Positions 519-35,244 of a DNA stretch of 58,612 nucleotides are shown here, piece by piece (positions within the stretch are counted from its first letter, which is position 1; each line of letters opens with the position of its first letter). Under the pieces are notes generated by a model. That model was given only the letters and a program-made list of their open reading frames with translations. It made no database searches and was not told the DNA's origin. Both the position numbers and the translations under genes were made by a program. The stretch is from Candidatus Woesearchaeota archaeon (GTDB lineage Archaea; Nanobdellota; Nanobdellia; Pacearchaeales; GW2011-AR1), in assembly GCA_964530945.1 (NCBI GenBank), contig CAZHCJ010000003.1:1-58612 (forward strand), given 5' to 3'.

Positions 519-1172
519 ACGCGCGAGTTAAATCTACCGAGAGAAAACTGGTTGCCCAGTGTTGTTCGTGGAGCTACAGGGGTTGGAAATACTGGAGAGG
601 TTGACCTTTTTACGTTACTTAGAAGTTCTTTTAGACAAAATCCTGATTATGTTATAGTTGGGGAGGTTAGAGGTAAAGAAGCATATGTTTTGTTCCAAGG
701 GATGGCTTCTGGGCATTCTTCTATAAGCACCATGCACGCAGACTCTGTCGACACAGTGATTAAACGTTTAGAAACTCCTCCTATCGAACTTTCACCTACA
801 CTGATGAATGTGTTGGATTGTGTTTGCATTATGACTCACGCAATTGTCAAAAATCAAGAAACCCGTAAACTTAGAGAAATTGTCGAAATAGTGGACATCA
901 GCCCCGAAGGAATCGCAATAACAAATACGCCTTTTACTTGGAACCCTAACGAAGATAGATTTTATTTCAAAAGGCATAGTAAAATATTTGAAAAAATAGC
1001 TAAACGTTACGGTTTATCTTTAGATGAGATAAATCTTGAATTTCAAAGAAGAATACAACTGTTATACAATGTGTATGAAAACAAAATCTTTGATTTCGAA
1101 CAATTCCAAGAAGTCGTAAACCAATATTATAAGAACAAACAGGCGGTTCTTCAAAAATTTGGTATACAATGA
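1..1172 (+). CDS. FlaI/PilB/VirB11-family secretion ATPase (archaeal type IV pilus/archaellum type), 5'-truncated by the window edge and interrupted by an intein
   Basis: The frame of ORF 201..1172 stays open back to nt 3. After ...FVHN|T (nt 516-521) the sequence TRELNLPRENW...DYVIVGEVRGKEAYVLFQGMASGHSSISTMHA matches the conserved IEDTxEL, Walker B/Asp-box and His-box core of GspE/FlaI ATPases. Confidence 0.85.
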   Translation, partial: KTFEVSCSSQSYELLEDIQTLFLRLDTISRINDFNRKDKCINLSISSSENIEKFREIRFLQERKNRMLFLLNRKAHHTKSDVIPLSIKKLKEVSENHSKLSWPYLVGKQNIGREYLQKIAVPGSEYNDLSHNDIYWDRVRSVKKISSKEIEVFDLSILKHEKFICSNVFVHNTRELNLPRENWLPSVVRGATGVGNTGEVDLFTLLRSSFRQNPDYVIVGEVRGKEAYVLFQGMASGHSSISTMHADSVDTVIKRLETPPIELSPTLMNVLDCVCIMTHAIVKNQETRKLREIVEIVDISPEGIAITNTPFTWNPNEDRFYFKRHSKIFEKIAKRYGLSLDEINLEFQRRIQLLYNVYENKIFDFEQFQEVVNQYYKNKQAVLQKFGIQ

Positions 1173-1221
1173 ATCTATTCTCAAAACAAACTTTTAATAA
1201 ATACTGTCTCTTTGAAACGTC

Positions 1222-1404
1222 ATGAAAGACAATCCTGAAGATGTGTTTTTGAAAAGCTCGGCTCTTCATCAACTTGTTTTACATGTTGAAGAAAGTTTAG
1301 AGGAACTTAAAGAAGCTTATGAAAAAGATAACAAGGAAGAATTTGCTAAACTAAGAGCTACAATTGTAAAAACCCAAAAAGAAATAGATAAAATATTAAG
1401 TTAA
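1222..1404 (+). CDS. Hypothetical small helical protein
   Basis: 60-aa ORF with charged, coiled-coil-like composition. No recognisable motif. Confidence 0.35.
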   Translation: MKDNPEDVFLKSSALHQLVLHVEESLEELKEAYEKDNKEEFAKLRATIVKTQKEIDKILS

Positions 1405-1647
1405 TTACTTCTTAGTTTTTCCGGAAAGTTTTCCTATCCAAACTGTTGCTAATACTGCCGTTAATGTAACAAGTATTGCATACATCCAAGGTCCTCCTCC
1501 TGAGATTGAACACAATGCTCCAGCATTTTCAGAACCACAAGGACCTACAAAAAGTGCACGGATTGCATCGTTCCAAGCCAAAGCGGCAACAAGCCCAAAA
1601 GCAGCAGTCATTAACGTGGCAAGTTTTTCTACAACTTCTTTTTTCAT
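1405..1647 (-). CDS. Small membrane protein (two TM helices)
   Basis: ORF 1405..1674. The internal ATG at 1647 is preceded by GGAGG about 8 nt upstream. Hydrophobic segments AAFGLVAALAWNDAI and WMYAILVTLTAVLATVWI. Confidence 0.5.
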   Translation of the reverse strand: MKKEVVEKLATLMTAAFGLVAALAWNDAIRALFVGPCGSENAGALCSISGGGPWMYAILVTLTAVLATVWIGKLSGKTKK

Positions 1648-1694
1648 TTTCGCCTCCTTTAGTATAAAAGACATTATGAAATATATAAATCTGC

Positions 1695-1913
1695 TTATTC
1701 AATACTCCAAAACTTCCATTTGTGTGGAGAATCTGGGCCCCAAATCCTTAAATGCATGAAATCATTTAAATCGCTAATAAAATGACCAATCCCAAAAGAT
1801 AGCGCAAAAATACCTAGAGGGGTTTCGATATAAAACATTCCTCCCATAAATAATATCAGCCCGTAAATCCAATGATGGGGTGTGTTAAGATGTCCTCCCC
1901 ATTTATCACCCAA
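1695..1913 (-). CDS. Small membrane protein. The frame continues upstream through an in-frame TGA to an ATG at 1979
   Basis: 72-aa ORF starting at TTG. The same frame upstream reads MDASAIVIIGMF-TGA(1941..1943)-CFSGFAIGRLGDKW. Confidence 0.45.
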   Translation of the reverse strand: MGDKWGGHLNTPHHWIYGLILFMGGMFYIETPLGIFALSFGIGHFISDLNDFMHLRIWGPDSPHKWKFWSIE

Positions 1914-2062
1914 ACGTCCTATTGCAAAACCTGAGAAACATCAGAACATTCCAATAATAACAATCGCTGAAGCATCCATTCAATTTTAAAAAATCTTGAA
2001 TTTATAAATCTGTTTAGAGGTTTCAATAAATTAATAAATAATGTATCCTTGTCTTTAGAAGT

Positions 2063-3541
2063 ATGGATGAGAGATTTATAAGAGAGGTACAAGAAAATAC
2101 TCGGCGTCAAAAAGAGATTACCCAACAATTGAAGAAACTTTCTAATCAGTTTATGCGCTCAGGAAACAGGCGAGAAAGAGAAATGATTAGTTTGAGAATT
2201 CAAGAAATAAAAGAAGAGTTGAAAAGAATCAATGCCCGTAGTGCTGATTCTGCAAGAAAACTCTCAATTTACAAAAATCTTCCGACGCCAATGCCTGGCG
2301 GAAAATTCAAGAAACTCCCAAAAATAGAGGATAGTTTAGACCCTAATCAAAACCCAATGATTAAACATGCAAAAAAACAAGAAACCAATCCTGTCCAAAA
2401 TATCCCTCAAAATAAATCTGGTTCGAATATGTCAAGATATTTCCAAACGGATTCTTCGCATAAAAAAGAAAAAAGAAGAGATTACGAAGAAAAAGATGAA
2501 GACGATTTGTTAAAAAAGAAAAAGAAAGGGAAATTTGACCTTACCGATTTAGAAAAAGAAACTATTAGGAGAATGAAGAAACCCGAAAAAGATAAGAAAA
2601 AGAGCAAGAAAGAAAAAGGATTCCGTAAACCACACAAACATGTCCAGATAGCAAGCAAGATGTTTTATTCTTTTTCTCAAAAACTTATAAGAAAAAATAA
2701 ATTTAAGAAAATACGTCGCGAATTAGTTAGAAGCAATCTTGAATTTGTTCCTGCAAACTATATTTCATTCATGCTTTTCATCACATTTGTTTCTTTTATT
2801 GTGTCTTTGTTTATACTTGGATTTTTCTTGTTTTTCAGTCTTATAGCACTACCTCCATTTTTAATACATACCGAAACGCCTTTTTTTACAAGACTCTTAC
2901 AAACTTTTTGGATTCCGATTTTGCTTCCAATAGTGGCTTACTTTTTCATGTATTTTTATCCTTCAATGGAACGAGGGGTTTTAGAAGCTAAAATAGACCG
3001 TGAATTACCTTTTGCTACGATTCACATGTCTTCTATTTCAAGCTCTTTAGTTGAACCAAGTAAAATTTTTGAAATAATTGTTACAACAAAAGAATATCCC
3101 ACTATCTCCAAGGAGTTCACTAAATTATTGAATGAGATAAATATTTATGGGTATGATTTGGTTTCTGCTTTGAAAAATATTGCTTTCAATAGTCCTAGTA
3201 AAAAGCTTGCAGAATTGTTTAATGGATTGGCAACAACGATAACTTCTGGAGGAAACTTACCTGAGTTCTTTGAAAAGCGTTCTCAAACTCTTTTGCTTGA
3301 ACACAGATTGGAAAGGGAAAAACAATCTAAGGCCGCAGAGACGTTTATGGACATTTATATTAGCGTGGTTATTGCTGCACCTATGATTTTAATGTTGTTA
3401 TTGATTATGATGAGAGTTAGTGGGTTAGGCATCTCACTTAGCACAGGGATGATTACAATAGTAATGATTTCTGGAGTTACACTTCTTAATGTTGTGTTCT
3501 TAATCTTCTTACATTTGAAACAACCCGGAGGTGCAGGATGA
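2063..3541 (+). CDS. FlaJ/TadC-like pilus platform membrane protein (T2SS-F domain) with a long Lys-rich cytoplasmic N-terminus
   Basis: The C-terminal half contains a T2SSF-type segment (GYDLVSALKNIAF...LAELFNGLATTITSGGNLPEFFEKRSQ) flanked by TM helices. It follows the secretion ATPase. Confidence 0.8.
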   Translation: MDERFIREVQENTRRQKEITQQLKKLSNQFMRSGNRREREMISLRIQEIKEELKRINARSADSARKLSIYKNLPTPMPGGKFKKLPKIEDSLDPNQNPMIKHAKKQETNPVQNIPQNKSGSNMSRYFQTDSSHKKEKRRDYEEKDEDDLLKKKKKGKFDLTDLEKETIRRMKKPEKDKKKSKKEKGFRKPHKHVQIASKMFYSFSQKLIRKNKFKKIRRELVRSNLEFVPANYISFMLFITFVSFIVSLFILGFFLFFSLIALPPFLIHTETPFFTRLLQTFWIPILLPIVAYFFMYFYPSMERGVLEAKIDRELPFATIHMSSISSSLVEPSKIFEIIVTTKEYPTISKEFTKLLNEINIYGYDLVSALKNIAFNSPSKKLAELFNGLATTITSGGNLPEFFEKRSQTLLLEHRLEREKQSKAAETFMDIYISVVIAAPMILMLLLIMMRVSGLGISLSTGMITIVMISGVTLLNVVFLIFLHLKQPGGAG

Positions 3542-4401
3542 GAATGAAAAAATCAAATTGGATTGGAATAGGAATCGGGTTAGTAGTTATGGGACTCTCA
3601 TTTTTAATTTTAAACACTAGATTCTTTTTCTTTGTCTTGGGAATGGGTGTTTTAATCATTGTATCTCCTTTTGTTATTGCTTTAATACGTGAAAGCAGAG
3701 ATTCTAATGAAAAAGAACAAATGTTCTTAGAGTTTTCACGTAATCTTGTTGAAAGTGTTAAAGCAGGAACTCCCATAAGTAAAAGCATCATTAATGTTAA
3801 GGACAAACCGTATGGTGTTTTGAGTGAGAACATTAGGAAGCTCGCAAATCAAATTTCTTTAGGAATTCCTTTAAATCAAGCACTTAGAACATTTTCAAGA
3901 GACATGAAAAATAAAACTATTTCCAGGTCGTTAACTTTGATTGGGCAGGCAGAAAGAAGTGGAGGCGAGATTGGAGAAATATTGGAGAGTGTTACAGAAG
4001 CCGTTACCATGGCAGACAAATTAAAAAAAGAACGTAAAGCCGCAATATCTACATTAGTTGTCCAAGGATACATTATATTTTTTGTTTTCATTGTCATTGT
4101 TTTAGTCATGCAGTTTCAAATTCTTCCTATATTGTCAAACATCTCTCCTGGAGAAGATGGAGGCGCAAGCGCAAGCGCCGACCTTGGCTTGGGTTTCGTT
4201 GGAGGCGGAGGGGGCGAACCAATTAATAGTCAAGATATAGCAAATTCATTTTTGTATTTGTTGCTTGTCCAAGGATTCTTTTCCGGGCTTTCTATAGGTA
4301 AACTCGCAGAGGGTTCTGCTAAATCTGGAATTAAACATTCATTTGCTCTTATGCTCGTCGCATTTTTAATTTCTACTGGAGCAAATATACTTTTTGCATG
4401 A
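3538..4401 (+). CDS. Second FlaJ/TadB-like platform protein (T2SS-F domain)
   Basis: GTPISKSI...LANQISLGIPLNQALRTFS...LIGQAERSGGEIGEILESV is a T2SSF repeat. Multiple TM helices. 4-nt overlap with the upstream gene. Confidence 0.8.
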   Translation: MRMKKSNWIGIGIGLVVMGLSFLILNTRFFFFVLGMGVLIIVSPFVIALIRESRDSNEKEQMFLEFSRNLVESVKAGTPISKSIINVKDKPYGVLSENIRKLANQISLGIPLNQALRTFSRDMKNKTISRSLTLIGQAERSGGEIGEILESVTEAVTMADKLKKERKAAISTLVVQGYIIFFVFIVIVLVMQFQILPILSNISPGEDGGASASADLGLGFVGGGGGEPINSQDIANSFLYLLLVQGFFSGLSIGKLAEGSAKSGIKHSFALMLVAFLISTGANILFA

Positions 4402-5122
4402 AATGATGTCTAAAAAAGCTTCACATGTGGGTTTTGTATTGTCTTTTGTTCTTTTTATCACCTCGCTGATTTTCTTCTATACTTTAATTCAACCAAGTTT
4501 TCAAACAGAAACTGAAAAACAAAACACGCTTGATTACCTTCAAAATAAAGTTATTGAAAACGTTACGGTATTGCACAAAAGTGTAAGCGTCAATCCGGAT
4601 ATTTCAGGTATTTGTTTAGATTTTCAAGAGCTGAGAGATGTTGTGGAAATAAGTAAAAAAATAAAGATTGTTGATGATTCTGGAAATAAGTATGATGGTT
4701 ATGCTTCTTCAGATGGAGGTTTAGTTGTTGAAAGCGATTCGGGGAATATTGATTTTGTAAAAATAATTGAATCTTCTTCTTTTGATGGAATTGGCACGTT
4801 TAGTAGCCAGTGTAGTGCCACCTCTTTAAGCCAGAGCCAATATACAATTGGTCAGGTGAGGTCTGAAGAAAAGATATCTGTTTTTAAAATTCTTGAATTA
4901 ATCAACTTGCATAAAAATTCTTATTCTAGCCTTAAAGATTCTTGGAATGTCCCTGGAACGGTTGATTTTGAATTGATTTTTACTTATTCTAATTCAACCG
5001 AGATTTCTACTGGTAGCGCCCCAGAAGTCCAAATAAACATTTATTCTAATGAAGAATCTATACAATATATAAACGACAATGGTGTTGAAAAAGGAGGTAA
5101 ACTAAGAATTATTGTATGGTAA
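4394..5122 (+). CDS. Putative pilin-like secreted protein (class III signal peptide-like N-terminus)
   Basis: N-terminus MSKKA|SHVGFVLSFVLFITSLIFFY (basic residues, small residue, then a hydrophobic helix). Located directly after the platform genes. Confidence 0.45.
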   Translation: MHEMMSKKASHVGFVLSFVLFITSLIFFYTLIQPSFQTETEKQNTLDYLQNKVIENVTVLHKSVSVNPDISGICLDFQELRDVVEISKKIKIVDDSGNKYDGYASSDGGLVVESDSGNIDFVKIIESSSFDGIGTFSSQCSATSLSQSQYTIGQVRSEEKISVFKILELINLHKNSYSSLKDSWNVPGTVDFELIFTYSNSTEISTGSAPEVQINIYSNEESIQYINDNGVEKGGKLRIIVW

Positions 5123-5559
5123 ATAGAAGGGCTTGGATTAGGATTGTTGAAGCATCGATAGCAATACTTCTTCTTGCAGGAATTACATTGCTTATTCTTA
5201 ATCAATGGAATTTGCAAATAAAAGAGGATTCTGGTGAGGAAATTTATGGGATTCAAAAAGAAATCCTACATAGTATTCAAACAGATAATGATTTGAGAGA
5301 AGATGTTTTAAACACTCAAGAAAGTAACTTACCTATCTCATGGAACAACGTTCCGGACAGCATTAAAACAGAAATTCAAGAAAAATCTTCTTCTTTGAAT
5401 TGTCAAGCAAAAATTTGTGGCCTTACTGGGGAATGTGTTTTGCAAAATCCCGAGGAAAAAAATATTTATTCTGAATTTATTGTCCTTACTGTCACTACAT
5501 CTCAATCTGGAGATTACAGTCCGAGAAAATTAAAATTATTTTGTTGGGAAAATGAGTAA
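5116..5559 (+). CDS. Putative pilin-like protein
   Basis: N-terminus MVNRRA|WIRIVEASIAILLLAGITLLIL resembles a prepilin cleavage site plus hydrophobic helix. Overlaps its neighbours. Confidence 0.5.
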   Translation: MVNRRAWIRIVEASIAILLLAGITLLILNQWNLQIKEDSGEEIYGIQKEILHSIQTDNDLREDVLNTQESNLPISWNNVPDSIKTEIQEKSSSLNCQAKICGLTGECVLQNPEEKNIYSEFIVLTVTTSQSGDYSPRKLKLFCWENE

Positions 5560-5971
5560 GAAATATGAGTTTTTAGAGCACACTGCAGACATAAAATTTC
5601 GTGTTAGGGGTAAAACGCTTAATGAAGTATTTGAGAATTCTGTTTTGGCAGTTTCAGAATTTTTATCTCGTGATGAGAAGATTAAGGGAGTTAAAGAAAA
5701 ACGTTTTAAAGTTGAAGGGAACGATTTGGAAAGCCTCTACTATAATTTTTTAGATGAAATTGTTTTTTTGCTGGATGCGAAGGATTTTGTTGTTTCCCAT
5801 GCCAAAGTGAACGTTGATAAAAAAACGTTTAAAGCCGAGGGTAACTTCTTTGGGAATGATACGAAGCTTTATCCTGATTTGGACCATTTCAAGGCTGCAA
5901 CTTACGCAGAGATGTATATTAAGAAATTGAAAAACAACACATGGGAATCTCAAGCTGTGCTGGATGTTTAG
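5552..5971 (+). CDS. Archease (RtcB activator)
   Basis: N-terminal YEFLEHTADIKFRVRGKTLNEVFENS and C-terminal AATYAEM motifs typical of the archease family. 139 aa. Confidence 0.9.
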   Translation: MSKKYEFLEHTADIKFRVRGKTLNEVFENSVLAVSEFLSRDEKIKGVKEKRFKVEGNDLESLYYNFLDEIVFLLDAKDFVVSHAKVNVDKKTFKAEGNFFGNDTKLYPDLDHFKAATYAEMYIKKLKNNTWESQAVLDV

Positions 5972-6015
5972 ATTTTTAATTAACAGGGATCAAGGCTAAC
6001 AAAAGTTTTTTATAA
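5927..6015. repeat. 89-bp perfect direct repeat, copy 1 (last 45 nt of archease plus 44 nt downstream)
   Basis: Identical base for base to 6910..6998: ttgaaaaacaacacatgggaatctcaagctgtgctggatgtttag...caaaagttttttataa. Confidence 0.95.
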
Positions 6016-6017
6016 AT

Positions 6018-6061
6018 TTTTATTGCTTTATCTCTTGCATAGTTCAATCCCAAGGGTTTTA
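6018..6061. repeat. 44-bp exact copy of an internal segment of the GT2 gene
   Basis: ttttattgctttatctcttgcatagttcaatcccaagggtttta is identical to 8692..8735, which encodes ...KPLGLNYARDKAIK on the minus strand. Confidence 0.9.
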
Positions 6062-6081
6062 GATGTTTAGTGTAAGTTTTT

Positions 6082-6696
6082 TTAAGAAGGGCAAGGAGAC
6101 ACATTATCTATTTCATAAATATGATCAAAATTCTTATCTAGAGAATTATCTTCATTGGAAATTGTCTGCCTCATCCCGTTATTAAAAAATTCTCCGCTTT
6201 TAGGTTTTAAGAGAATAGAAAACATTTTTTCTTTTAATTTTTGGTGAATTAAAAAACCTGCTGGGACAATTTCTAAATTTCCCATTTCTATTTTATTCTT
6301 TGAAGCGTGAATACTCCCAAGAACTACAAATGTTCTTTTATCATCAACTAATTTCAAAATATTATTTGCAATCTCTCTTTCCATTTCTTCTTGATTTTTT
6401 ATTGAACTGGGGGCAATAAAAAACACCCTTATATTTTTGGGCATTTTTTTAATTAATTTTATGTACTCTTTGCTAATCAATCCACTTGTGCCAATTCTCC
6501 TAGAAAGTGGAAGGATTTTATCATGTTCTGAATGTTGAAATTCATCAGATATTTCTAAACCTAGATTAAAATCTTCCTTTTTTGCTAAATCGCCAAATAA
6601 ATTTAAAAGTAGTTTTGGGATTTCTTTTGTCCCATGGGTTTCTCCGAATAAAACTAATTTTTTATCCTTTATTTTTGATATTATTTCTTGGACCAT
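6082..6696 (-). CDS. Hypothetical protein, weakly ChaN/Tiki-like
   Basis: 204-aa ORF. N-terminal KKLVLFGETHGTKEIP resembles the (V/L)LLGExH start of the ChaN/erythromycin-esterase/Tiki superfamily. The family assignment is from memory and weak. Confidence 0.45.
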   Translation of the reverse strand: MVQEIISKIKDKKLVLFGETHGTKEIPKLLLNLFGDLAKKEDFNLGLEISDEFQHSEHDKILPLSRRIGTSGLISKEYIKLIKKMPKNIRVFFIAPSSIKNQEEMEREIANNILKLVDDKRTFVVLGSIHASKNKIEMGNLEIVPAGFLIHQKLKEKMFSILLKPKSGEFFNNGMRQTISNEDNSLDKNFDHIYEIDNVSPCPS

Positions 6697-6698
6697 TT

Positions 6699-6881
6699 TT
6701 ATTCTAGTAGATTGTCCGCTATTTCTTTGGTCAGGTCATGTCCTGATTGTTCCTGAAGCCATAGCCATTGGCCATTTGGGTTTAATTCTAAGAAGAAATA
6801 CTTACCTTTTTTTGAATGAATAAAATCAAATGCTCCAAAACATCTACCATATAATTTCATAAAATCCAATCTATTTAAATT
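6699..6881 (-). pseudogene. ATP-grasp enzyme, C-terminal fragment only
   Basis: Hand translation gives ...NLNRLDFMKLYGRCFGAFDFIHSKKGKYFFLELNPNGQWLWLQEQSGHDLTKEIADNLLE*. The FLE(L/V)NPxGQW block is the ATP-grasp C-terminal signature. The frame closes at a stop at 6882..6884, so the N-terminal ~250 aa are absent. Confidence 0.6.
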
Positions 6882-6909
6882 TTATTGTGTTATGGTTTAT
6901 TATCTATTT

Positions 6910-6998
6910 TTGAAAAACAACACATGGGAATCTCAAGCTGTGCTGGATGTTTAGATTTTTAATTAACAGGGATCAAGGCTAACAAAAGTTTTTTATAA
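6910..6998. repeat. 89-bp perfect direct repeat, copy 2
   Basis: Identical to 5927..6015. Flanking bases differ on both sides (5926 a vs 6909 t; 6016 a vs 6999 c). Confidence 0.95.
6991..6998 (+). promoter_or_regulatory. TATA-like box (TTTTATAA) 21 nt upstream of the 7019 ATG
   Basis: Lies at the 3' end of repeat copy 2. Spacing suggests a leaderless or short-leader transcript. Confidence 0.4.
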
Positions 6999-7018
6999 CA
7001 TTTATCTCTTCTAAACTC

Positions 7019-8047
7019 ATGCTTATTAAACCTAAGAAACTAAAAAAAGGAGACACTATAGCTGTGATTTCTCCCTCTTCTGGAATGGCTAATAGATATC
7101 CTCACAGAATAGATAGGGCAATAAACTTTTTTGAATCGGAAGGTTACAAAATAAAAGAATTTCCTACAACAAGAAAAAGTAATGGGTGGGAATCTGCTCC
7201 TGCAAAAGAAAGGGCGAAAGATATTATGAGTGCATTCCTTGATAAAGAAGTTTCTGCCATCATCGCTTCCATAGGTGGCACTGTTGCAACGCAAACCTTA
7301 AAATACTTGGATTTTGAAAAAATAAAAGAAAATCCTAAAATCTTTTGTGGCTACTCCGACAATTCTGTTTTACATTATGCATTTCACGCACAATCTAATT
7401 TAGTGACTTTTTATGGACCATGTATGATGACGCAGTTCGCAGAATACCCTCGTCCTTTGAAATATACATTAAAATATTTTAAAAAAGCTCTCACGACAGA
7501 AAAACTCATAGGAAGAATTTATCCTTCAGAAAATTGGACGGAAGAAATATTGGACTGGAGCAAAAAAATGGACTTAACAAGACCTAGAAAACTAAAAAAT
7601 AATGATGGGTTTGAATGGATTAGAAAAGGGGAGGCAAAAGGGAGACTTCTAGGGGGTTGTTTGACTTCAATAGTCCACCTTCCAGGAACAAAATACTGGC
7701 CCGACCACGAAGATAAAATACTGTTTTTAGAATTACCTGAGGGCGAAAAATTCGATAAAGGTGAACCTTTGCCATATGTCGACTGGTATTTGGAGCAATT
7801 AGAAATATTGGGGGTTTATAGAAAGATAAAGGGGCTTATTTTTGGCAGACCTTTTAGATATGACGATAAAGAAAATAAAATTCTTAAAGAAAAACTCTTA
7901 GAAAGAACAGAGGGATATGATTTCCCCATACTTTTTGGGGCAGACATTGGTCACACGGATCCTCAAATTACTCTTCCTTTAGGTGTTGAAGCCCGTATTA
8001 GCTCCGAGGAAAACTCTTTTGATATTCTGGAAGCAGGGGTTGTTTAA
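7019..8047 (+). CDS. S66-family serine peptidase (LD-carboxypeptidase LdcA / microcin C7 immunity MccF-like)
   Basis: LKKGDTIAVISPSSG start, nucleophile motif GYSDNSVLH and C-terminal ADIGHTDP, i.e. the Ser-His-Glu arrangement of peptidase S66. 342 aa. Confidence 0.85.
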   Translation: MLIKPKKLKKGDTIAVISPSSGMANRYPHRIDRAINFFESEGYKIKEFPTTRKSNGWESAPAKERAKDIMSAFLDKEVSAIIASIGGTVATQTLKYLDFEKIKENPKIFCGYSDNSVLHYAFHAQSNLVTFYGPCMMTQFAEYPRPLKYTLKYFKKALTTEKLIGRIYPSENWTEEILDWSKKMDLTRPRKLKNNDGFEWIRKGEAKGRLLGGCLTSIVHLPGTKYWPDHEDKILFLELPEGEKFDKGEPLPYVDWYLEQLEILGVYRKIKGLIFGRPFRYDDKENKILKEKLLERTEGYDFPILFGADIGHTDPQITLPLGVEARISSEENSFDILEAGVV

Positions 8048-8955
8048 TTTCTTATATGGGGAGAGATTATCTTTCCTTCCTCCAATTCTTTTAAATAATG
8101 TTTCTTTCCAGAGAAATATCCAAAAGTATAGGAGGTTAATTTTAATGTTTGATAATAATATTCAAGAAAATTTATCCTTCCAAATCTAAATGTAAAAAGA
8201 TTCTTCCAAAGAGACCAAGGGGAAAATTCTTTCCTAAAAAGATCTGGCCTCTTGTATTTAATGTGAAAAGAAGCCCTACCAAATTTATTGTATCTTTTCA
8301 TTTCTCCAAAAAAAGAGGGGTACTTGTGATACACAATAATTGAATCATCAAACAACACTTCTAGATTAAATTTTTTAAATTTATCCATCAACATAAGGCT
8401 TTCGGCTCCTGGAGCATAAAAATGATCCGTGTCATAACCTCCTATTTTAAAATACGCCTCTTTTTTTAGAATTAGATTTTTACCGTCTGCTTGTTTCTGT
8501 TGATAAAATCTTATCCTATCCCACTTACTCTCAGATAAAGAAAACCACCTCTCATCTGAGGGAACAAAATACGCTCCTTGAATCACATCGACCCCTTTAT
8601 TTTTAAGTATAGAAAAGAAAATCCTTTCAACATAATCTTTTTTAACCATAGTATCTGAATCTACTAAAATAATATATTCCTCTTTGGCAAATTTTATTGC
8701 TTTATCTCTTGCATAGTTCAATCCCAAGGGTTTTATTCTTAAATAGTGAAGATATTCAAGAGTTAGTTTTTTTATTAAATTGGATACCTCCTTGGTGGTA
8801 GAGTTATCTGCAACTATTAGCTCTACAGATAAGGAATAGTTGTGTTTCTTCTGGAAATTTTTTAAAGATTTGTCTATAGATTGTAAGGTTTTTTTTAATC
8901 CAAGGGGATTATTAAATGAAGGAACAATTATGCTCAGTCCCATCTCATCGGCCAT
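8044..8955 (-). CDS. Family 2 glycosyltransferase
   Basis: LSIIVPSFNNP start, ...ADNSTT... and the DxD motif in ILVDSDTMV. Confidence 0.85.
   Translation of the reverse strand: MADEMGLSIIVPSFNNPLGLKKTLQSIDKSLKNFQKKHNYSLSVELIVADNSTTKEVSNLIKKLTLEYLHYLRIKPLGLNYARDKAIKFAKEEYIILVDSDTMVKKDYVERIFFSILKNKGVDVIQGAYFVPSDERWFSLSESKWDRIRFYQQKQADGKNLILKKEAYFKIGGYDTDHFYAPGAESLMLMDKFKKFNLEVLFDDSIIVYHKYPSFFGEMKRYNKFGRASFHIKYKRPDLFRKEFSPWSLWKNLFTFRFGRINFLEYYYQTLKLTSYTFGYFSGKKHYLKELEEGKIISPHIRN
8692..8735. repeat. Source copy of the 44-bp segment, inside the GT2 CDS
   Basis: Exact match to 6018..6061. Confidence 0.9.
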
Positions 8956-9790
8956 TTTTTTCTATAGGTATTGAAGTATAAAGTTCTGAATCTTCCCAAA
9001 TTTTTCTTTTAGATAAAATTAAAATAGTGTATCCCATTCTAGAAAGATTTTCTCTAAATAAAAACATATATTCTTTGTAAATATGATGTAATTTCTTATA
9101 GGTCTCTTCATTTAAACTATTTAGGTGTTCTCTTTGGAGGATTTCTTCGCAAAACTCTTCAATTCTTTTGTCTCCAATATAATCAAATCTAAAATCTTTT
9201 GACCAATAAATGTCTAATTCAGAAGCTAAAAAGAAATCTATCCAGTTCGATTTATATAAAGGATCTATTTTTACCTTAATTGCGTCTGAAACATTTTGAA
9301 TCAAATCTTTAGAGGGTTTTTCCAAATAATACATGGGTATTGCCGCAATAAAACCATCTTTTTTACACACACGGAGACATTCTTTCAACGCTTTCCTTTT
9401 ATTTTTCATCAAAGAAAAAACATTGCCCACAATTACCAGGTCAAAAGTGCCTTCTTCAAAAGGTAGGTTATTCACATCTGCTTTGGAAAAATTGATGTTA
9501 ATATATCCTTCAAAATCTGCCCTCTTCTTGGCTTCTTTTAGACTCTCCTCATTTATGTCTACCGAATTTATATTGCATTTGACTAATCTACTAATTTCTA
9601 TCGGAGTAAATCCTGTGCTAGTTCCGACTTCCAATATCTTGCTATCCTTGGTTATCTTAATCCTATTCATAATCTCAAAAAGACTGTTCTTTCCTCCTGG
9701 GGGGCGATTTGTTTCTTTTACTAATCCGATTATTTGGTTGTAATCCATGCGCCCTATATCTTCTACAGATAAATCTTTTATATCTTTCAT
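8945..9790 (-). CDS. Class I SAM-dependent methyltransferase
   Basis: Motif I ILEVGTSTGF, post-I SVDINEE, FDLVIVGNVF. Confidence 0.85.
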   Translation of the reverse strand: MKDIKDLSVEDIGRMDYNQIIGLVKETNRPPGGKNSLFEIMNRIKITKDSKILEVGTSTGFTPIEISRLVKCNINSVDINEESLKEAKKRADFEGYININFSKADVNNLPFEEGTFDLVIVGNVFSLMKNKRKALKECLRVCKKDGFIAAIPMYYLEKPSKDLIQNVSDAIKVKIDPLYKSNWIDFFLASELDIYWSKDFRFDYIGDKRIEEFCEEILQREHLNSLNEETYKKLHHIYKEYMFLFRENLSRMGYTILILSKRKIWEDSELYTSIPIEKNGR

Positions 9791-9791
9791 T

Positions 9792-10976
9792 TTAATCTAA
9801 TATCTCTTCAAGAGTGGAATCTTTTTGAGTAGGAGATTTTCTCTCTTGGACCCTCAAACCTTCGGGAGTAACTAAGATTATTTTTGGAACTCCCAAAAAA
9901 CGAGATATTTTAATTTTACTATTGACTTTTGCGTTTGACCTATCATCTACCAAAACTTGCATTCCTTCTTCTTCCAATCCTCTCTCTAAATCTGCCAATC
10001 GGGCAAGAATATCTGGATCAGAATGATACTGAGGGATTAGATAAAAGTCAAAAGGAGAAATAGCTTCAGGCCAGACAATTCCTTCTTCGTCAAGGTTTGT
10101 GTCTACAATAGAGTAGATTAATCTTGACATCCCTATGCCATAAGTGGCCAAAAAAGGATAAATCTCTTCGTTTGAACTCCCTCTAAATTTTAAATTTAAT
10201 CCTCTACTAAATGAATCATCAAAAATTTTAAACATTGATACGCCTAACCCTTTTTGGATTTCTACATCTTCCCCACAAACGATGCATCCTTCTCTTTGCT
10301 CATCATATTCTGTGAAATGCCCACCCTCACATAAGAACATTTTGTGCTGTCCTCTTTCTGTCTCCAGAAGAAAATTGCCGTAATTTCCTCCTTCGGATTC
10401 CACATATTTTAAATCTAGATGTGTGCTTAAGCAGAGATCTTTCATTATTCTCTTGAAAGAATCTACTTTTTCTCTCGAATCCTCTTCTCCTGAGTGGAAG
10501 CTATATGCTTCAAAAACCTGAAACTCACTTGTGCTTATCAATCCTCCTGAAGGAGTATTGTGGGAGAAAACTTCTCCAAACTGGAATAATCCAAGAGGTA
10601 AATGTCTATTGAAAAGATTTCCGTGGACTAAATTAGTTATGGTCTCCTCATTTGTACGTGATAGAGAAAAATCTCCAAATTCAGGAGAAAGTCTAAAGAT
10701 GTTTGCTACGTAAGCATCCAACCTCCCCGTGTCTCTCAAGAGCCTTGTGGGTTGTATCTTAGGCAATAAAATTTCTTGGAATCCTTCCTTAAGTGCGGAA
10801 GACCTAATTATTTCTTGAAGAGAATTGAAAACCTTCATCCCCAAAGGAAGTAACGTGTAAAATCTCGCCCCTTCGTAATGGACTAAACCCGCCTTTTCCA
10901 TTAATTGAGATGTTTCAAACTTTGAAACATCATGATGTTCCATCAGGTGTGGAGCATATAATTCTTGGACATTCAT
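9792..10976 (-). CDS. Bacterial-type prolyl-tRNA-synthetase-like paralogue (class IIa core plus anticodon-binding-like domain, no INS domain, degenerate motif 2)
   Basis: Colinear with ProS by recall: YTLLPLGMKVFNSLQEII, LPKIQPTRLL, LSRTNEETITNL, SEFQVFEAYSFH, motif 3 TYGIGMSRLIYSIVD...GIVWPEAISPF. Start moved to the ATG at 10976, 1 nt after the upstream stop. Confidence 0.75.
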   Translation of the reverse strand: MNVQELYAPHLMEHHDVSKFETSQLMEKAGLVHYEGARFYTLLPLGMKVFNSLQEIIRSSALKEGFQEILLPKIQPTRLLRDTGRLDAYVANIFRLSPEFGDFSLSRTNEETITNLVHGNLFNRHLPLGLFQFGEVFSHNTPSGGLISTSEFQVFEAYSFHSGEEDSREKVDSFKRIMKDLCLSTHLDLKYVESEGGNYGNFLLETERGQHKMFLCEGGHFTEYDEQREGCIVCGEDVEIQKGLGVSMFKIFDDSFSRGLNLKFRGSSNEEIYPFLATYGIGMSRLIYSIVDTNLDEEGIVWPEAISPFDFYLIPQYHSDPDILARLADLERGLEEEGMQVLVDDRSNAKVNSKIKISRFLGVPKIILVTPEGLRVQERKSPTQKDSTLEEILD

Positions 10977-10977
10977 T

Positions 10978-12114
10978 TTAAGGAACCAATCCTCTGTCAG
11001 TCCTAGGGAAGTGGACCGCACTCCAAATAAAAGGCATTTCCAAGAGACCTTGTAAAAATCTCTCCCAACCTAGTCCAAAACCAGATGTTTTTTTATAATT
11101 TTTAAGCCTTCTTGTTTGCATATAGGGTTTGTAATCTTCCTTGGGCAAATTGAATATTCTTGCTTTTTTCTCTAACTCTTCTTTTGATTCTACCCTGGCC
11201 CCACTTCCAAGAATCTCTCTATAGCCTCCCCAAATTATGTCTGCATTATTTGCCACTTTTAATTTTTTATTTTTTGACTCAGAATGGTAGAAAGGGACTT
11301 CTAAAAGAGGGAACTCTCTTATCAAAACCATGCCTCCAAGAATTTCTGTAATTTTAATTTCCTCCCATTGTCCAAAATTTTTTAAACTGAACTCTTTGTA
11401 TTTTTCATCTTTTGTCTCTTCGTATAATAAATCTAATGCGTCTTTGAAGGTTATTTTTGGTATATCGAAAATATTCTCTGTGAATTCTTCCAATTCTTCA
11501 ATTTTTTTTGCTGACAAGAAATAGAGCATATCTTCTTTGTTTTTGTTAAGTAGATCAGAAATCATCTTCTTGATTAATCCAAGGGCTATCTTTTCATTTT
11601 CTTCCTGGTTTACCTTTCCTTCAAATTCCACATGGTGGAATTCTGAAAGATGAGTTGCATCTGTCCTTTCTTTTCTGAATGAGTTATAAATGGAATAAAC
11701 CCCTTCTACATTTTTTTGTGCTAATGCTAACTCTAAATAAATTTGTGAAGATTCTGAGAGAAAAATCCTCTGGGGCAGATCAAACCATTTCAAAGATATG
11801 GGATAAGTGTCTGTAGTATAATCTATTGCCTTTTTCCCATAAACTGCCCCTGGAGAAGAAATCATTCTTGTAGTCAAAGGCAGAGGGGTAAATAATGCAT
11901 TCATTTTATTGAAATAATCATTTACAGAAATATTTATCTGGTGATTTATCCTGGCTATGTGTGCCCACATATTAGAAGAATCAAATTCTTCAACACGTTC
12001 TTTAAATTCTCTCAAAGGAACACTCTCTAAATTAAGTTCCATTATTGGCTCAAAAACCTCATTCCCTTTATAAGAAATTTTTCCGTTCTTTAGTGCAGTA
12101 TAAGGTCCAAGCAT
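10978..12114 (-). CDS. Class IIb aaRS catalytic-core paralogue (AsnRS / archaeal asparagine-synthetase-A-like), lacking the OB anticodon-binding domain
   Basis: FLSESSQIYLELAL, motif 2 YNSFRKERTDATHLSEFHHVEFE, motif 3 GFGLGWERFLQGLL. Only about 50 aa precede the catalytic core. Confidence 0.75.
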   Translation of the reverse strand: MLGPYTALKNGKISYKGNEVFEPIMELNLESVPLREFKERVEEFDSSNMWAHIARINHQINISVNDYFNKMNALFTPLPLTTRMISSPGAVYGKKAIDYTTDTYPISLKWFDLPQRIFLSESSQIYLELALAQKNVEGVYSIYNSFRKERTDATHLSEFHHVEFEGKVNQEENEKIALGLIKKMISDLLNKNKEDMLYFLSAKKIEELEEFTENIFDIPKITFKDALDLLYEETKDEKYKEFSLKNFGQWEEIKITEILGGMVLIREFPLLEVPFYHSESKNKKLKVANNADIIWGGYREILGSGARVESKEELEKKARIFNLPKEDYKPYMQTRRLKNYKKTSGFGLGWERFLQGLLEMPFIWSAVHFPRTDRGLVP

Positions 12115-12271
12115 CCTAATAAAATCCCTCCCTGTGAGTTTTGGGGTAGATAAAAAAGAAAAGACATTTCTTCGTGCCCAATATCTTCTCGTTCATAAAA
12201 TTAGATATTTCTGATTATTTTTAAGTTTTATTATTCTATGGCTACATCTTTATATAAGAGGTAATTTCTAT

Positions 12272-12308
12272 AAAACTAACTCTCAAATCAAACAATAGAG
12301 TTAGTTTT
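12272..12308. promoter_or_regulatory. Perfect 12-bp inverted repeat (aaaactaactct N13 agagttagtttt) abutting the rtcB TATA box
   Basis: Arms at 12272..12283 and 12297..12308, in the divergent intergenic region between the aaRS-like operon and rtcB. Confidence 0.45.
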
Positions 12309-12315
12309 TTATAAT
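12308..12315 (+). promoter_or_regulatory. TATA-like box (TTTATAAT) 20 nt upstream of the rtcB ATG
   Basis: Same motif and spacing as other genes in this window. Confidence 0.45.
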
Positions 12316-12334
12316 GTAATTTATTCTCTAAAAC

Positions 12335-13750
12335 ATGGAGATTAAGAAAATTTCAGAGAATGTTTATGAAATTGCTAAAACTGGAAAGATGTTAGTGCCA
12401 GTTCGAATTTTCGCTTCGGAAAAAATCCTCGAGAAAATAAAGGAAGATAAAACGTTGCAGCAGGCTAAAAACATGGCAATGATAGAAGGTTCCGTTCAAC
12501 ATGTAGTGGTTCTCCCGGACGCCCACCAAGGTTATGGGGCGTGTATAGGAGGGGTTTCTGCCTTTGATACAGAAAAAGGAGTTATAAGCCCCGGTCAGGT
12601 AGGATATGATATTAATTGTTCCGTGAGGCTTTTGAAAACAAATCTGACCTTAGAAAATGTCAAAAGCAACGAAAAAGAAATATCTAATGAATTGTTCAAT
12701 GCTGTGCCCTCTGGCGTTGGGAAGGGAGGTTTGAAGAAACTTTCTGAAGAAGAGTTAGATGGGATATTAGAGGAAGGTGCCCAATGGTTAGTTAAAAATG
12801 GCTTTGGGAAAAAAGAGGATTATCTTTTCACAGAAAATCAAGGGAAATTAGAAGGGGCTAAAATAGAATATGTTTCCCCGCGTGCAAAAGCTCGTGGACG
12901 TAAACAGCTTGGAACTCTTGGGGCAGGAAATCATTTCTTGGAAATTCAGCAAGTGGAAAAAATATTTGATGAAAAAGCTGCAAAAGTTCTTGGTTTGAAG
13001 GAAGGAGATATTACAGTAATGATTCATTGCGGTTCTCGAGGTCTTGGACATCAGACAGCAACCGATTATATTAAAGAAATGGAAAGAAAATACGGCTGGA
13101 GTCATTTACCTGATAGACAATTAATTTGTGCTCCAATTAAAAGTGAATTGGGTCAAAAATACTTTGGTGCTATGGCGGCCGCTGCTAATTTTGGTTTTGC
13201 TAATAAGCAACTAATAACACATAAAATTAGAGAATTTTTAAAAAAAATTCTTCCCGATTTTGAAGCTAAAGTAGTGTATGACATTTGTCACAATATAGCC
13301 AAATTTGAAACACATAAAATTAATGGTGAAGAAAGAGAACTTTTAATAGTTCGAAAAGGCGCAACAAGAAGTTTTGGCCCTGGAAGAAAAGAGGTACCCA
13401 AGAAATATAGGGAGATAGGTCAGCCAATATTTATTCCTGGGAGTATGGGGACGGCATCTTATGTTTTGTTGGGCACTAAAAAGGCCGAAGAAGTTTCATT
13501 GGCTTCCACTGCTCATGGTGCAGGAAGACTTCTTTCAAGAAGTTATGCTAAGAAAAATCTTTCACTAGACAATGTAAAAAAAGATTTGGAAAAAAAAGGG
13601 ATTGCGATAAAGACCGATTCTGTGAAAGGAATCTTGGAAGAAGCACCTCAGGCATATAAGGACGTCGACGAAGTTGTTAAGGTCTCCCATGATGCAGGAA
13701 TAGGAAAAATGGTTGCTAAACTAAAACCATTAATTGTCATCAAAGGATAG
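12335..13750 (+). CDS. rtcB: RNA-splicing ligase RtcB
   Basis: PDAHQGYG, GYDINC, GAGNHF, HCGSRGLGHQ, AHGAGR motifs. 471 aa. No intein. Confidence 0.95.
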   Translation: MEIKKISENVYEIAKTGKMLVPVRIFASEKILEKIKEDKTLQQAKNMAMIEGSVQHVVVLPDAHQGYGACIGGVSAFDTEKGVISPGQVGYDINCSVRLLKTNLTLENVKSNEKEISNELFNAVPSGVGKGGLKKLSEEELDGILEEGAQWLVKNGFGKKEDYLFTENQGKLEGAKIEYVSPRAKARGRKQLGTLGAGNHFLEIQQVEKIFDEKAAKVLGLKEGDITVMIHCGSRGLGHQTATDYIKEMERKYGWSHLPDRQLICAPIKSELGQKYFGAMAAAANFGFANKQLITHKIREFLKKILPDFEAKVVYDICHNIAKFETHKINGEERELLIVRKGATRSFGPGRKEVPKKYREIGQPIFIPGSMGTASYVLLGTKKAEEVSLASTAHGAGRLLSRSYAKKNLSLDNVKKDLEKKGIAIKTDSVKGILEEAPQAYKDVDEVVKVSHDAGIGKMVAKLKPLIVIKG

Positions 13751-14847
13751 GTTTTTGTATCTTGAGCTTTTTTTTAAGTAACTCTTCTCTCAGAGTGTCA
13801 TAAATATGATTGAAGATCTCTCGATTACCTTCGCAAAATAGCGTCTTACCTTCAATGTGCCCATGAGTAATATATGAATCAAAAGCACACCCCGAATTGC
13901 AATATTCTTTTATGTTACATTCTTCCCTTTGGCAAATGCTTCTTCTACTATTTATTTTCCTTCTTAAAGCATGATTATTTATCTCTTCTACTGAATCTTC
14001 AAAGACATTTCCTAATCTAAATTCTCCTATTGCAATAAATCTTCCACAAGGATAAAAATCTCCTTGAGTAGACACTCCAATAAATCCCTCCTGACAGTGT
14101 CCTGAATAGTTACATCCTTTCATTCTCTCCGTGAAAAAGGCTTTCATAATTTCTCTAAAAGGAGATATTTTTGTTTTTGAAGAATCGTGATTATACCATT
14201 TATCAAACAAAAAATCATTGCTTTAGAATATTCCTCAGGAGTTATTGCCAAATGGCTATTTTCCAATGCCCTTCCAGTCTCTATAAGAGGATTTATCTTA
14301 AAGTTTATTTCTTCTTCGTGAAAAAAATCATAAATCTCCTCTAAATAAGAGATATTTGTTTTGTTTAGAACAAGAACCGCTCCTCCGCCTATGCCTCTTT
14401 CTTTTGCTAGCATAATTGCATCATAAATCCTATCAAAACTTCTCTTGCCACTTAAAAACTTCCTGGTTAAATCATTGTACTCTTTAGTTCCGTCTAAGCT
14501 AAAACTCACTCTAAAATCATTTTCTTTAAAAAATCTGCAAAAGATTCTCTGAATAAAATCCCATTTGTTTGAACACTGTTTCTTATCTTGAACTCTGAGA
14601 ATTCTTTCTAGAAATTAACAACCCCTCTATAAAAAGGGAGACCGGGTATAAGAGGTTCTCCCCCATGCCAAATAAAATGAGATTTTATTTCGCCATTATA
14701 TTCAACAACTCTTTCTATACCTTTTTTGGCAACATCAATTTCCATATTACTTTTGATGTGAAAACCCTCCATAGAACAATAAGAACAAGCAAGATTACAA
14801 CTATCACTTACCCTCATAATGGCAGTCAAACCTTGTTGATCAACCAT
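13740..14847 (-). pseudogene. Radical SAM / SPASM-domain maturase (AslB-like), disrupted
   Basis: Three ORF pieces are colinear with one enzyme: CNLACSYC cluster (14608..14847), SLDG...core (14144..14509) and a Cys-rich SPASM tail (13740..14210). There is an in-frame TAG at 14608..14610. Two frameshifts lie in homopolymer runs near 14520 and 14209..14214. Confidence 0.8.
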
Positions 14848-33197: not shown

Positions 33198-33377
33198 CAA
33201 CTTTATAGCCAATTTACCAATTACCACCATAACTTCAATTTTCACAAATAATAGATATAAACGCTACTAATTGTCGCTATTGAATTTTACTAAATAAACT
33301 AGCGTGTGACCCAGCTCTTCACTTATTCAATCATAAGTGTTGGCTAGGAATATTGGAAAGAAAAAAGAATTTAAAAA

Positions 33378-35096: not shown

Positions 35097-35097
35097 T

Positions 35098-35244
35098 TTA
35101 CTCGCCCCCTCCATCATTATTTAACGCTTCATTTAGTATAAACTCAATAGCGTGAGACCTGTTTCTGTATTTTTTACTTTTCAGAGCTTCCTCTACAAGT
35201 TCAAGGGTTTCTTTTTCAAGAGTTAAACTTACTCTTTGTTTCAT
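35098..35244 (-). CDS. Ribbon-helix-helix (CopG/Arc-like) DNA-binding protein, 48 aa
   Basis: Hand translation MKQRVSLTLEKETLELVEEALKSKKYRNRSHAIEFILNEALNNDGGGE gives a beta strand plus two helices. Not in the ORF track (shorter than 60 aa). Confidence 0.6.
   Translation of the reverse strand: MKQRVSLTLEKETLELVEEALKSKKYRNRSHAIEFILNEALNNDGGGE

Follow-up and report, generated by a model that had tools for sequence, protein, structure and literature searches.

What does an archaeon make with two aminoacyl-tRNA synthetase paralogues, a methyltransferase-like enzyme and a glycosyltransferase packed into one operon, with a serine hydrolase gene converging on its end? Such a locus lies at one side of a 58,612-nucleotide stretch of a Candidatus Woesearchaeota archaeon (contig CAZHCJ010000003.1 of assembly GCA_964530945.1), referred to here as the window. 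Comparison of its five proteins with domain and structure databases, with related loci and with the gene clusters of the antibiotics agrocin 84 (agn) and microcin C (mcc) indicates that the locus represents a modular form of the agrocin 84/microcin C systems in an archaeon. We consider it probable that the cassette serves both the biosynthesis of, and the immunity to, an aminoacyl-adenylate mimic of the N-acyl-phosphoramidate type. Its parts are:

7019..8047, plus strand: S66 serine hydrolase of the MccF/AgnC5 type (S66), 342 amino acids (aa), convergent with the operon
8044..8955, minus strand: family 2 glycosyltransferase (GT2), 303 aa (Pfam Glycos_transf_2, 1.4e-16)
8945..9790, minus strand: S-adenosylmethionine (SAM)-dependent transferase of the AgnB1 family (MT), related to MccD, 281 aa (homology to AgnB1 and MccD)
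9792..10976, minus strand: ProL, divergent bacterial-type prolyl-tRNA synthetase (ProRS)-like protein with an anticodon-binding domain, 394 aa (Pfam/NCBIfam; start set by alignment)
10978..12114, minus strand: AsnL, truncated class IIb synthetase paralogue of the asparaginyl-tRNA synthetase (AsnRS) type, 378 aa (Pfam/NCBIfam)
12115..12334, no strand: divergent intergenic region between AsnL and RtcB, 220 bp, presumed operon promoter (gene layout only)

AsnL and ProL, like ProL and MT, are separated by a single nucleotide, MT and GT2 overlap by 11 nt, and the stop codons of the convergent GT2 and S66 genes share a 4-nt overlap. The open reading frame (ORF) of ProL reaches a GTG at 11021, and alignment of its homologues placed the start at the ATG at 10976. 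With this start the ORF coordinates agree with the layout of 1-nt gaps or overlaps and a 4-nt convergent overlap described in a first-pass annotation of the window. The family assignment of all five proteins was supported by Pfam and NCBIfam searches, which also bore out that annotation's calls of a class I methyltransferase and a GT2. Since numerous strong homologues exist for each of the five, the ORFs are real genes and not chance reading frames.

AsnL contains the Pfam domain tRNA-synt_2 and lacks the OB anticodon domain (tRNA_anti-codon). Its scores were 141 and 130 bits against the NCBIfam AsnRS models (cut-offs 414 and 343) and 112 bits against the best asparagine synthetase A model (cut-off 389). 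The motif-2 arginine (FRKE, R147) and the motif-3 arginine (GFGLGWER, R352) are intact and invariant across the family, as are E149, H155, D292 and R307, and E300 is nearly invariant. These results agree with the initial description of an AsnRS-type core without anticodon domain and with motifs 2 and 3 intact. The closest solved structures were those of AsnRS (family profile 2e-29; the aligned part begins near residue 107), and the archaeal asparagine synthetase A (AsnA) 3P8T gave a partial match (3e-10). The N-terminal segment of about 100 aa is conserved, specific to the family and without a solved counterpart. AsnL is 29% identical over 312 aa (E 3e-31) to AgnA, annotated as 'Agrocin84-synthetase', and scored 102-113 bits with AgnA-type proteins against 75-79 bits with canonical AsnRS of DPANN archaea. 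The AsnL family comprises more than 120 clusters at 62-74% identity, has a fixed length of 378 aa and comes from sources named Woesearchaeota, Pacearchaeota and Nanoarchaeota. A scan of viral contigs found no AsnL relatives and gave no sign of viral carriage.

The window MT and AgnB1 share 44% identity along 267 aa, full length (E 4e-79), whereas AgnC3, the other agn methyltransferase, gave only 25 bits. It is also 30% identical over 189 aa (E 2e-24) to MccD, to which AgnB1 is itself related (27% identity over 259 aa, nearly full length, E 1.5e-28). MccD, a class I SAM enzyme, and the decarboxylase MccE1 install the aminopropyl group of microcin C. MT and MccD are thus homologous by alignment, and the group transferred by MT may be either 3-amino-3-carboxypropyl or methyl, which homology does not distinguish. 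The MT family reaches Firmicutes, Microcystis and a very common gut-metagenome lineage at 46-52% identity; the methyltransferases of three bacterial clusters described below (L096-L098) are 48-49% identical to the window protein. MT adjoins AsnL in most loci. GT2, on the other hand, keeps its position in the nearest relative (L100/L101) and was missing in all 39 other non-redundant loci whose flanks were long enough, indicating that it is an accessory of the window's sub-lineage.

The S66 protein carries the Pfam domains Peptidase_S66 and S66C. Its matches in PDB were MccF and relatives at 6e-65 to 1e-46 and LdcA at 1e-25 to 1e-12, and it scored 101 bits against the NCBIfam model PRK11253 for muramoyltetrapeptide carboxypeptidase (cut-off 378). 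It is 31% identical to E. coli MccF (E 4e-52) and 35.5% identical to AgnC5 (1e-56, tblastn against plasmids). It was aligned with E. coli MccF from the mcc plasmid, AgnC5 and 47 S66 proteins of related loci. Ser113, His312 and Glu238 correspond to the MccF triad Ser118, His311 and Glu243 and are conserved in 47/47, 47/47 and 43/47 sequences; Trp180 corresponds to Trp186 of MccF, and 42 of the 47 have Trp at this position. The triad and this Trp are present in AgnC5 too. In MccF, Trp186 stacks on the adenine of microcin C (PMC8323819), and the conservation of the triad together with the adenine-stacking Trp argues that the S66 substrate is nucleotide-bearing. The first-pass annotation had weighed MccF against LdcA and had made its reading depend on a Ser-His-Glu triad. 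The triad is present, and the structure matches and the aligned residues support an assignment of the window S66 to the MccF type, not to the murein LdcA type.

The linkage of these genes was followed in neighbourhoods obtained by exact-protein look-ups, by a GTDB single-protein scan (10 loci) and by an alignment-based metagenome scan (80 further loci), which were mapped with our own ORF caller and phmmer. AsnL retains its linkage to this SAM enzyme, an MccF-type S66 and one or two further synthetases across about 80 related loci. For the counts, 40 non-redundant loci were used in which at least 4.5 kb of sequence follows AsnL: S66 was found in 33/40, MT in 32/40 and a second synthetase-like gene also in 32/40, and at least one immunity enzyme of the microcin C type was present in 35/40. 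The gene order is shuffled among lineages (AsnL-MT-Pro-S66, AsnL-Pro-MT-S66, AsnL-S66-Pro-Pro-MT and others), indicating functional linkage and not inherited synteny. The window order itself, including GT2 and the convergent S66, is kept exactly in the nearest relative (about 66% identity) in another genomic context, so that the refuting condition named in the first-pass annotation, an order conserved in no relative, does not apply. The S66 gene of this relative (L100, Ga0366834_1000912) is split into ORFs at 11403-11936 (N-terminal) and 10933-11412 (C-terminal), which points either to a frameshift or to a hydrolase in early decay.

Processed microcin C is detoxified by S66 (MccF), GNAT (MccE2), HIT (MccH) and S51 (MccG) enzymes (PMC9239234, PMC8323819). 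Each of the four types recurs as a neighbour or fusion partner of AsnL relatives, as does an MccE1-like decarboxylase. Neighbours in various loci include an S51 peptidase, a HIT hydrolase (11 loci), a RimL-type GNAT that matches the C-terminal domain of MccE and, in 3 loci, a pyridoxal phosphate (PLP)-dependent decarboxylase of the Orn/DAP/Arg type that matches the N-terminal domain of MccE at 1e-12. ATP-grasp, radical SAM/SPASM, APH-type kinase, methyltransferase, Fmt-like formyltransferase and ABC transporter genes were also seen. An all-against-library search revealed fusion proteins that join AsnL to MT (P0243) or, for AsnL-like cores, an MT (P0328), a GNAT (P0284), a HIT domain (P0356) or Asparaginase_2 with or without HIT to the core.

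The fusion set as a whole consists of P0243, P0328, P0284, P0356, P0302, P0306, P0348 and P0372, and one AsnL-like fusion protein of 1569 aa also bears a carnitine acyltransferase domain. Two families without a Pfam match recur immediately downstream of AsnL. The first (about 327 aa) occurs in 11 loci, which often have HIT and lack S66; the second (about 334-340 aa) occurs in 3 loci, of which two have GT4. They were located in L046 (1931-2914), L058, L072, L074, L075, L078, L080 and L082, and in L028 (6243-7247), L061 and L038, and may define alternative versions of the cassette. A regulator of the AsnC/Lrp type with two helix-turn-helix domains, about 314 aa long, is encoded divergently upstream of AsnL in 11 loci (as in L032, 5980-6924, minus strand). 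The window lacks it; where present, it is a candidate for controlling the cassette in response to amino acids.

ProL is a bacterial-type ProRS-like protein with an HGTP_anticodon domain and scored 193 bits (cut-off 558) and 180 bits (cut-off 307) against ProRS models. Both motif-2 arginines are replaced in the window protein ('FRDE..RPRFGLMRGREF' becoming 'FSHN.TPSGGLISTSEF'): FRDE is changed to FSHN and RGREF to STSEF, and both arginines are lost in the window's ProL sub-clade. The TxE amino-acid loop (T108, E110) and the motif-3 arginine (R285), on the other hand, are kept across 24 ProLs. The first-pass call of a bacterial-type ProRS-like protein holds for the family; the missing arginines make an ordinary adenylating ProRS unlikely. 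Judged from these residues, ProL may bind a prolyl moiety or the toxin, in a biosynthetic or decoy role, or may be decaying; the conservation of the TxE loop and of the motif-3 arginine argues against decay. The family evolves much faster than AsnL, with only 5 relatives above 50% identity.

A divergent ProRS-like protein is the commonest second synthetase (25/40 loci), and it is one of several types. The archaeal partners are ProRS-like, leucyl-tRNA synthetase (LeuRS)-like, class II lysyl-tRNA synthetase (LysRS)-like or canonical AsnRS, with one or two per locus, and in bacterial loci the partner is methionyl-tRNA synthetase (MetRS). ProL is paired in some loci with a bona fide bacterial-type ProRS (473-502 bits against TIGR00409, cut-off 306.7) and in others with an archaeal LeuRS-like protein that has lost the editing domain and kept HIGH and KMSKS. 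The class II LysRS-like partner occurs in other loci, once beside a canonical class I LysRS, and a canonical AsnRS (463-471 bits, cut-off 414) lies directly upstream of AsnL in L086, L092 and L011. This coexistence of canonical enzymes of the same specificity indicates that AsnL and ProL are not housekeeping enzymes. Because the type of the partner varies among loci, the acyl group handled by the cassette is possibly not Asp or Asn; the first-pass suggestion that AsnL forms an aspartyl- or asparaginyl-adenylate found no support.

From the homology, the conserved linkage, the fusions and the intact catalytic residues we infer the following chemical steps, product and target. AsnL, having lost tRNA binding and kept the ATP/adenylate chemistry, would take the place of AgnA and join an acyl-amide or amino-acid moiety to AMP by a stable N-acyl phosphoramidate bond. 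The SAM enzyme of the AgnB1/MccD family would alkylate the phosphoramidate phosphate, with methyl or with 3-amino-3-carboxypropyl as MccD does, or would prepare the precursor; where a decarboxylase is also present, aminopropylation of the phosphate would be expected. S66 would cleave the acyl-N bond of toxic product that accumulates inside the producer. The second synthetase may be a swappable module matched to the target synthetase, like AgnB2 in agrocin 84, and since that of the window is ProRS-like, its product would probably be a prolyl-AMP mimic of the phosmidosine type. ProL itself is more likely to bind the prolyl moiety or the toxin than to charge tRNA, given the loss of the motif-2 arginines with retention of the amino-acid loop and the motif-3 arginine. 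In the window's sub-lineage GT2 may add a sugar, possibly as a group for uptake or masking. Of the two first-pass proposals, that of a biosynthesis-plus-immunity cassette for an aminoacyl-nucleotide is the one to which the linkage, the fusions and the agn/mcc homology point.

Several observations weigh against this interpretation. The agrocin 84 pathway is described as unknown, and AgnA has been proposed to join a pentanamide precursor to the nucleotide via a phosphoramide bond (PMC8323819); since the AgnA reaction was never demonstrated, the central analogy rests on a proposal. AsnL forms a separate deep branch with 28-29% identity to AgnA-type enzymes, and an AlphaFold2 model of it, built from a 22-sequence alignment, had a mean pLDDT of 57.7, too poor for the pocket, and was not used. 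The loss of the motif-2 arginines means that the window ProL is not a straightforward resistant ProRS. ProL was also considered as the equivalent of AgnC1, described in the literature as remotely ProRS-like, and this found no support (no BLASTP match, hhalign probability 2.3%). There is no exporter gene in or beside the window's operon, and no genes for synthesis of an amide precursor were evident at it. AsnL is strongly conserved while its partner genes change, which is compatible with a generic bond-forming role and also with a core metabolic one. Finally, AsnL, MT and S66 are conserved at 60-74% identity and are chromosomal without compositional anomaly, features more typical of core than of secondary metabolism.

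Of the other explanations, the one that survives best is still unlikely. AsnL could make an amide through an adenylate, as AsnA and SlgZ do, with MT methylating the amide and S66 recycling the product. The product would then be no nucleotide toxin but a metabolite or compatible solute in the form of a modified amino acid or small peptide. Both AsnL and AgnA match archaeal 'asparagine synthetase A' models, the AS-A enzymes are synthetase cores without tRNA-binding domain (PMC9437257), SlgZ and SlgM provide a precedent for an AsnRS-like enzyme with a methyltransferase (PMC5357945), and the Asparaginase_2 fusions suggest Asn/isoAsp chemistry. However, the similarity of AsnL to the solved archaeal AsnA is weak and partial (3e-10), and amide tailoring leaves unexplained the HIT, GNAT, S51 and S66 partners, which all act on aminoacyl-nucleotides in mcc (PMC9239234), as well as the adenine-stacking Trp of S66, the extra synthetases and the kinship of MT with the phosphate-alkylating MccD.

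The second first-pass proposal, tRNA-independent aminoacylation, methylation and glycosylation of a surface molecule, was weakened by the restriction of GT2 to the window and its nearest relative, and we regard it as improbable. The GT2 gene in these two operons and GT4 genes in two other loci would suit it, and synthetase paralogues that aminoacylate acceptors other than tRNA are known, such as PoxA and the amino acid:carrier-protein ligases (PMC9437257). Glycosyltransferases, however, occur in about 3/40 loci, whereas S66, MT and the second synthetase are near-universal, no membrane, lipid-carrier or flippase genes are linked, and the homologous agn and mcc systems yield soluble nucleotide antibiotics. 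An island conferring only resistance has an equally slender chance. In it S66 would hydrolyse, and MT modify, aminoacyl-adenylate mimics made by neighbours, the synthetase would serve as a decoy or spare, and no such compound would be produced. Stand-alone homologues of MccF, MccE2, MccH and MccG do confer resistance outside producer clusters (PMC9239234, PMC8323819), and the window is without an exporter. Yet AsnL and MT are homologous to genes assigned to agn synthesis, AsnL is the most conserved, anchoring gene with a full adenylation site, and AsnL-MT fusions exist.

Slightly further down stands an intracellular, alarmone-like aminoacyl-nucleotide or dinucleotide signal made by AsnL, with S66 and HIT as turnover hydrolases, which we think very unlikely. 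Class II synthetases can make nucleotides of the Ap4A type, and HIT enzymes degrade these and aminoacyl-adenylates; the high conservation and the chromosomal location would suit a physiological role. Sensor or effector genes are absent, however, and a signal would not explain why the extra synthetases vary or why there is homology to two antibiotic systems. That AsnL and ProL are the organism's housekeeping AsnRS (or AspRS) and ProRS, as automatic annotations of AsnL relatives ('asparagine--tRNA ligase') would have it, can practically be dismissed, since AsnL has no anticodon-binding domain and falls far below the AsnRS, AspRS and AsnA cut-offs, ProL reaches 193 of 558 bits without motif-2 arginines, and canonical AsnRS and ProRS sit beside AsnL and ProL in related loci; sub-cut-off scores and coexistence alike uphold the first-pass view of non-housekeeping paralogues. 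The toxin-and-immunity cassette is preferred because the amide, surface, resistance and signal readings each cover part of the data and none of them accounts together for the extra synthetases, the four classes of aminoacyl-nucleotide hydrolase/acetylase and the agn/mcc homology.

If this reading is true, the locus would belong to the first antibiotic system of the aminoacyl-adenylate-mimic ('Trojan-horse') type seen in Archaea, and its presence in cell-attached organisms with tiny genomes makes it a candidate tool in interactions between symbiont and host or competitor. Since the cluster synthetase varies (Pro, Leu, Lys, Asn, Met), the inhibitors may form a family whose targets differ and can be predicted; such target prediction would be useful for natural-product discovery and the loci a source of resistant or ligand-binding synthetase variants. 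An arginine-less ProL decoy would, if true, be a new immunity mechanism. A broader picture is possible rather than probable: DPANN archaea and some bacteria of the candidate phyla radiation (CPR) may widely carry modular, ribosome-independent nucleotide toxins that target synthetases. In these AsnL would forge the N-acyl phosphoramidate bond, an AgnB1/MccD-type enzyme would decorate the phosphate, a swappable synthetase (Pro, Leu, Lys, Asn, Met) would set or reveal the target, episymbionts would use the toxins on hosts or competitors, and the arginine-less ProL could be a dead, toxin-sequestering decoy.

The window around the cassette is ordinary archaeal chromosome, with no break in composition at the cluster and with genes for archease, RtcB, CCA-adding enzyme, FttA, Rad50/Mre11, RNase J and type IV pilus components. 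No tRNA genes were found in the parts of the window checked, and no canonical synthetase among the window ORFs scanned. The cassette is flanked by the tRNA-splicing ligase RtcB (12335-13750, plus strand) and by its cofactor archease (5552-5971, plus strand). RtcB also adjoins AsnL in L003 (6081-7256), L004 and L023 and lies near it in L038; the nearest relative, L100, has no RtcB there, and the proximity may reflect lineage synteny, not function. Past RtcB, overlapping minus-strand ORFs at 13740-14509 encode a radical SAM C-terminal part (14144-14509) and a SPASM domain (13740-14210), which looks like a frameshifted or truncated gene; intact radical SAM/SPASM genes belong to the cassette in L008, L017, L039 and L041. 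Elsewhere in the window, the Rfam RNA RT-16 matched at 33200-33348 (minus strand; 80 bits, gathering score 50), directly downstream of a 579-aa ORF (33378-35117, minus strand) whose sole Pfam match is a protein kinase domain, an unexpected neighbour since RT-16 is described as reverse-transcriptase-associated. A PilB/T2SSE-type ATPase ORF (201-1172, plus strand) gave a borderline match to an intein-splicing domain (34.9 bits, cut-off 35.8), and the far end of the window (56600-58498, plus strand) encodes an Eco57I/MmeI-like type IIG restriction-modification methylase.

Among known systems, the agn cluster of plasmid pAgK84 (Rhizobium rhizogenes K84) resembles the window in having a truncated AsnRS homologue, an AgnB1-family SAM enzyme, an extra synthetase and an S66 protein. 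Its annotated order is agnA ('Agrocin84-synthetase'), agnB1 (SAM methyltransferase) and agnB2, with agnC5 ('MccF-like protein') in addition, and agnA-agnB1-agnB2 corresponds to the order AsnL-MT-synthetase of many archaeal loci. The first-pass annotation knew of no described system with this gene set; pAgK84, with agnA, agnB1, agnB2 and agnC5 (PMC8323819), shows that the locus is not without precedent. When 16 agn proteins were compared with the window ORFs by phmmer, cluster homologues were found only for AgnA, AgnB1 and AgnC5. The window cluster thus has no counterpart of AgnC1-C4, C6, C7, D, E, F or G, which stand for the pentanamide, 3'-deoxyarabinose and glucofuranosyl-phosphate moieties and for export (AgnG). 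The window product therefore cannot be agrocin 84 itself. The two also differ in that AgnB2 is a working, resistant LeuRS, whereas the window synthetase is ProRS-like and catalytically suspect, and in that the agn cluster is plasmid-borne and bacterial and the window cassette chromosomal and archaeal. Agrocin 84 (TM84) and processed microcin C are 'Trojan-horse' inhibitors of tRNA synthetases. TM84 mimics Leu-AMP as an N-acyl phosphoramidate (PMC5059758), and AgnB2 is about 1000-fold less sensitive to it (PMC8323819). No newer biochemistry of AgnA or AgnB1 and no archaeal or DPANN counterpart of the AsnRS-paralogue/MccF cluster were found in the literature searched.

The 2021 review located agn-like clusters only in one Ensifer strain and 19 actinobacterial genomes, with a cluster-borne MetRS presumed to give immunity (PMC8323819). 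These clusters (Ensifer sp. ENS09, Actinobacteria; Travin et al. 2021, PMC8323819) and L096-L098 of our collection share an AgnA-like core, an AgnB1-like MT, MetRS and S66, and follow the same logic as the archaeal loci in that the cluster-borne synthetase indicates the target. They differ in their YcaO, LuxC/LuxE, ThiS/ThiF, ABC exporters and tiny ORFs, none of which occurs in the archaeal locus, and in using AgnA-type cores where the archaeal locus uses an AsnL-type core. L096 is from a gut metagenome, and the sources of the three include Microcystis aeruginosa GCA_000312265.1 and a Firmicutes-like contig. These three also hold a YcaO protein with a large partner and an ORF of 36-52 aa; the collection lists the L096 MT in 706 blocks, and next to the cluster there is a relaxase.

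Two bacterial, GC-rich (67-68%) contigs, L067 (OBEQ011573597.1) and L068 (Ga0209515_10004432, 1-8986), bridge the two groups. On L068 lie genes for an AsnL-type protein (59% identity to the window AsnL), an MT (47% to AgnB1), a LeuRS (52% to AgnB2), a homologue of AgnC1 (36%) and an ABC transporter. An AsnL-type enzyme takes the place of AgnA there in an unmistakably agn-like cluster. The two contigs look like an undescribed agrocin-84-like cluster and imply transfer of AsnL between bacteria and DPANN archaea.

In the E. coli mcc operon MccF is convergent with the operon, as S66 is in the window, and mcc-like genes of related archaeal loci include the MccE1-like PLP decarboxylase, the MccE2-like GNAT, the MccH-type HIT and the MccG-type S51 proteins. 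Neither the ThiF-type nucleotidyltransferase MccB (by Pfam) nor the exporter MccC was found at the window cluster. No short ORF ending in Asn, as in MccA, was found upstream of AsnL, and only two trivial ORFs of 5-8 aa lie near S66. Since the adenylating enzyme is a class II synthetase paralogue, the pathway would be ribosome-independent.

The AS-A enzymes are AspRS/AsnRS-derived cores without tRNA-binding domain (PMC9437257), and in streptolydigin biosynthesis the AsnRS-like SlgZ is paired with the methyltransferase SlgM (PMC5357945). The archaeal AS-AR (Pyrococcus abyssi 3P8T) and SlgZ thus resemble AsnL as AsnRS/AspRS-derived cores used for small-molecule chemistry; AsnL differs from AS-AR in failing the AsnA cut-offs, in its own N-terminal segment of about 100 residues and in its aminoacyl-nucleotide hydrolase neighbours. 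Phosmidosine of Streptomyces durhamensis is an N-prolyl, O-methyl phosphoramidate of 8-oxoadenosine. By chemical analogy only, it would be the natural-product precedent for the product class that ProRS-like, MccD/AgnB1-like and AsnL proteins together suggest, namely prolyl-AMP mimics whose phosphoramidate is methylated. PMC6429109 lists the compound, and no biosynthetic genes for it were found in the literature searched. A minimal core of AgnA or AsnL, an AgnB1-type SAM enzyme and an MccF-type hydrolase is common to agrocin 84, the unnamed bacterial clusters and the archaeal loci, and this core opens a direct route to the chemistry that forms the P-N bond of agrocin 84.

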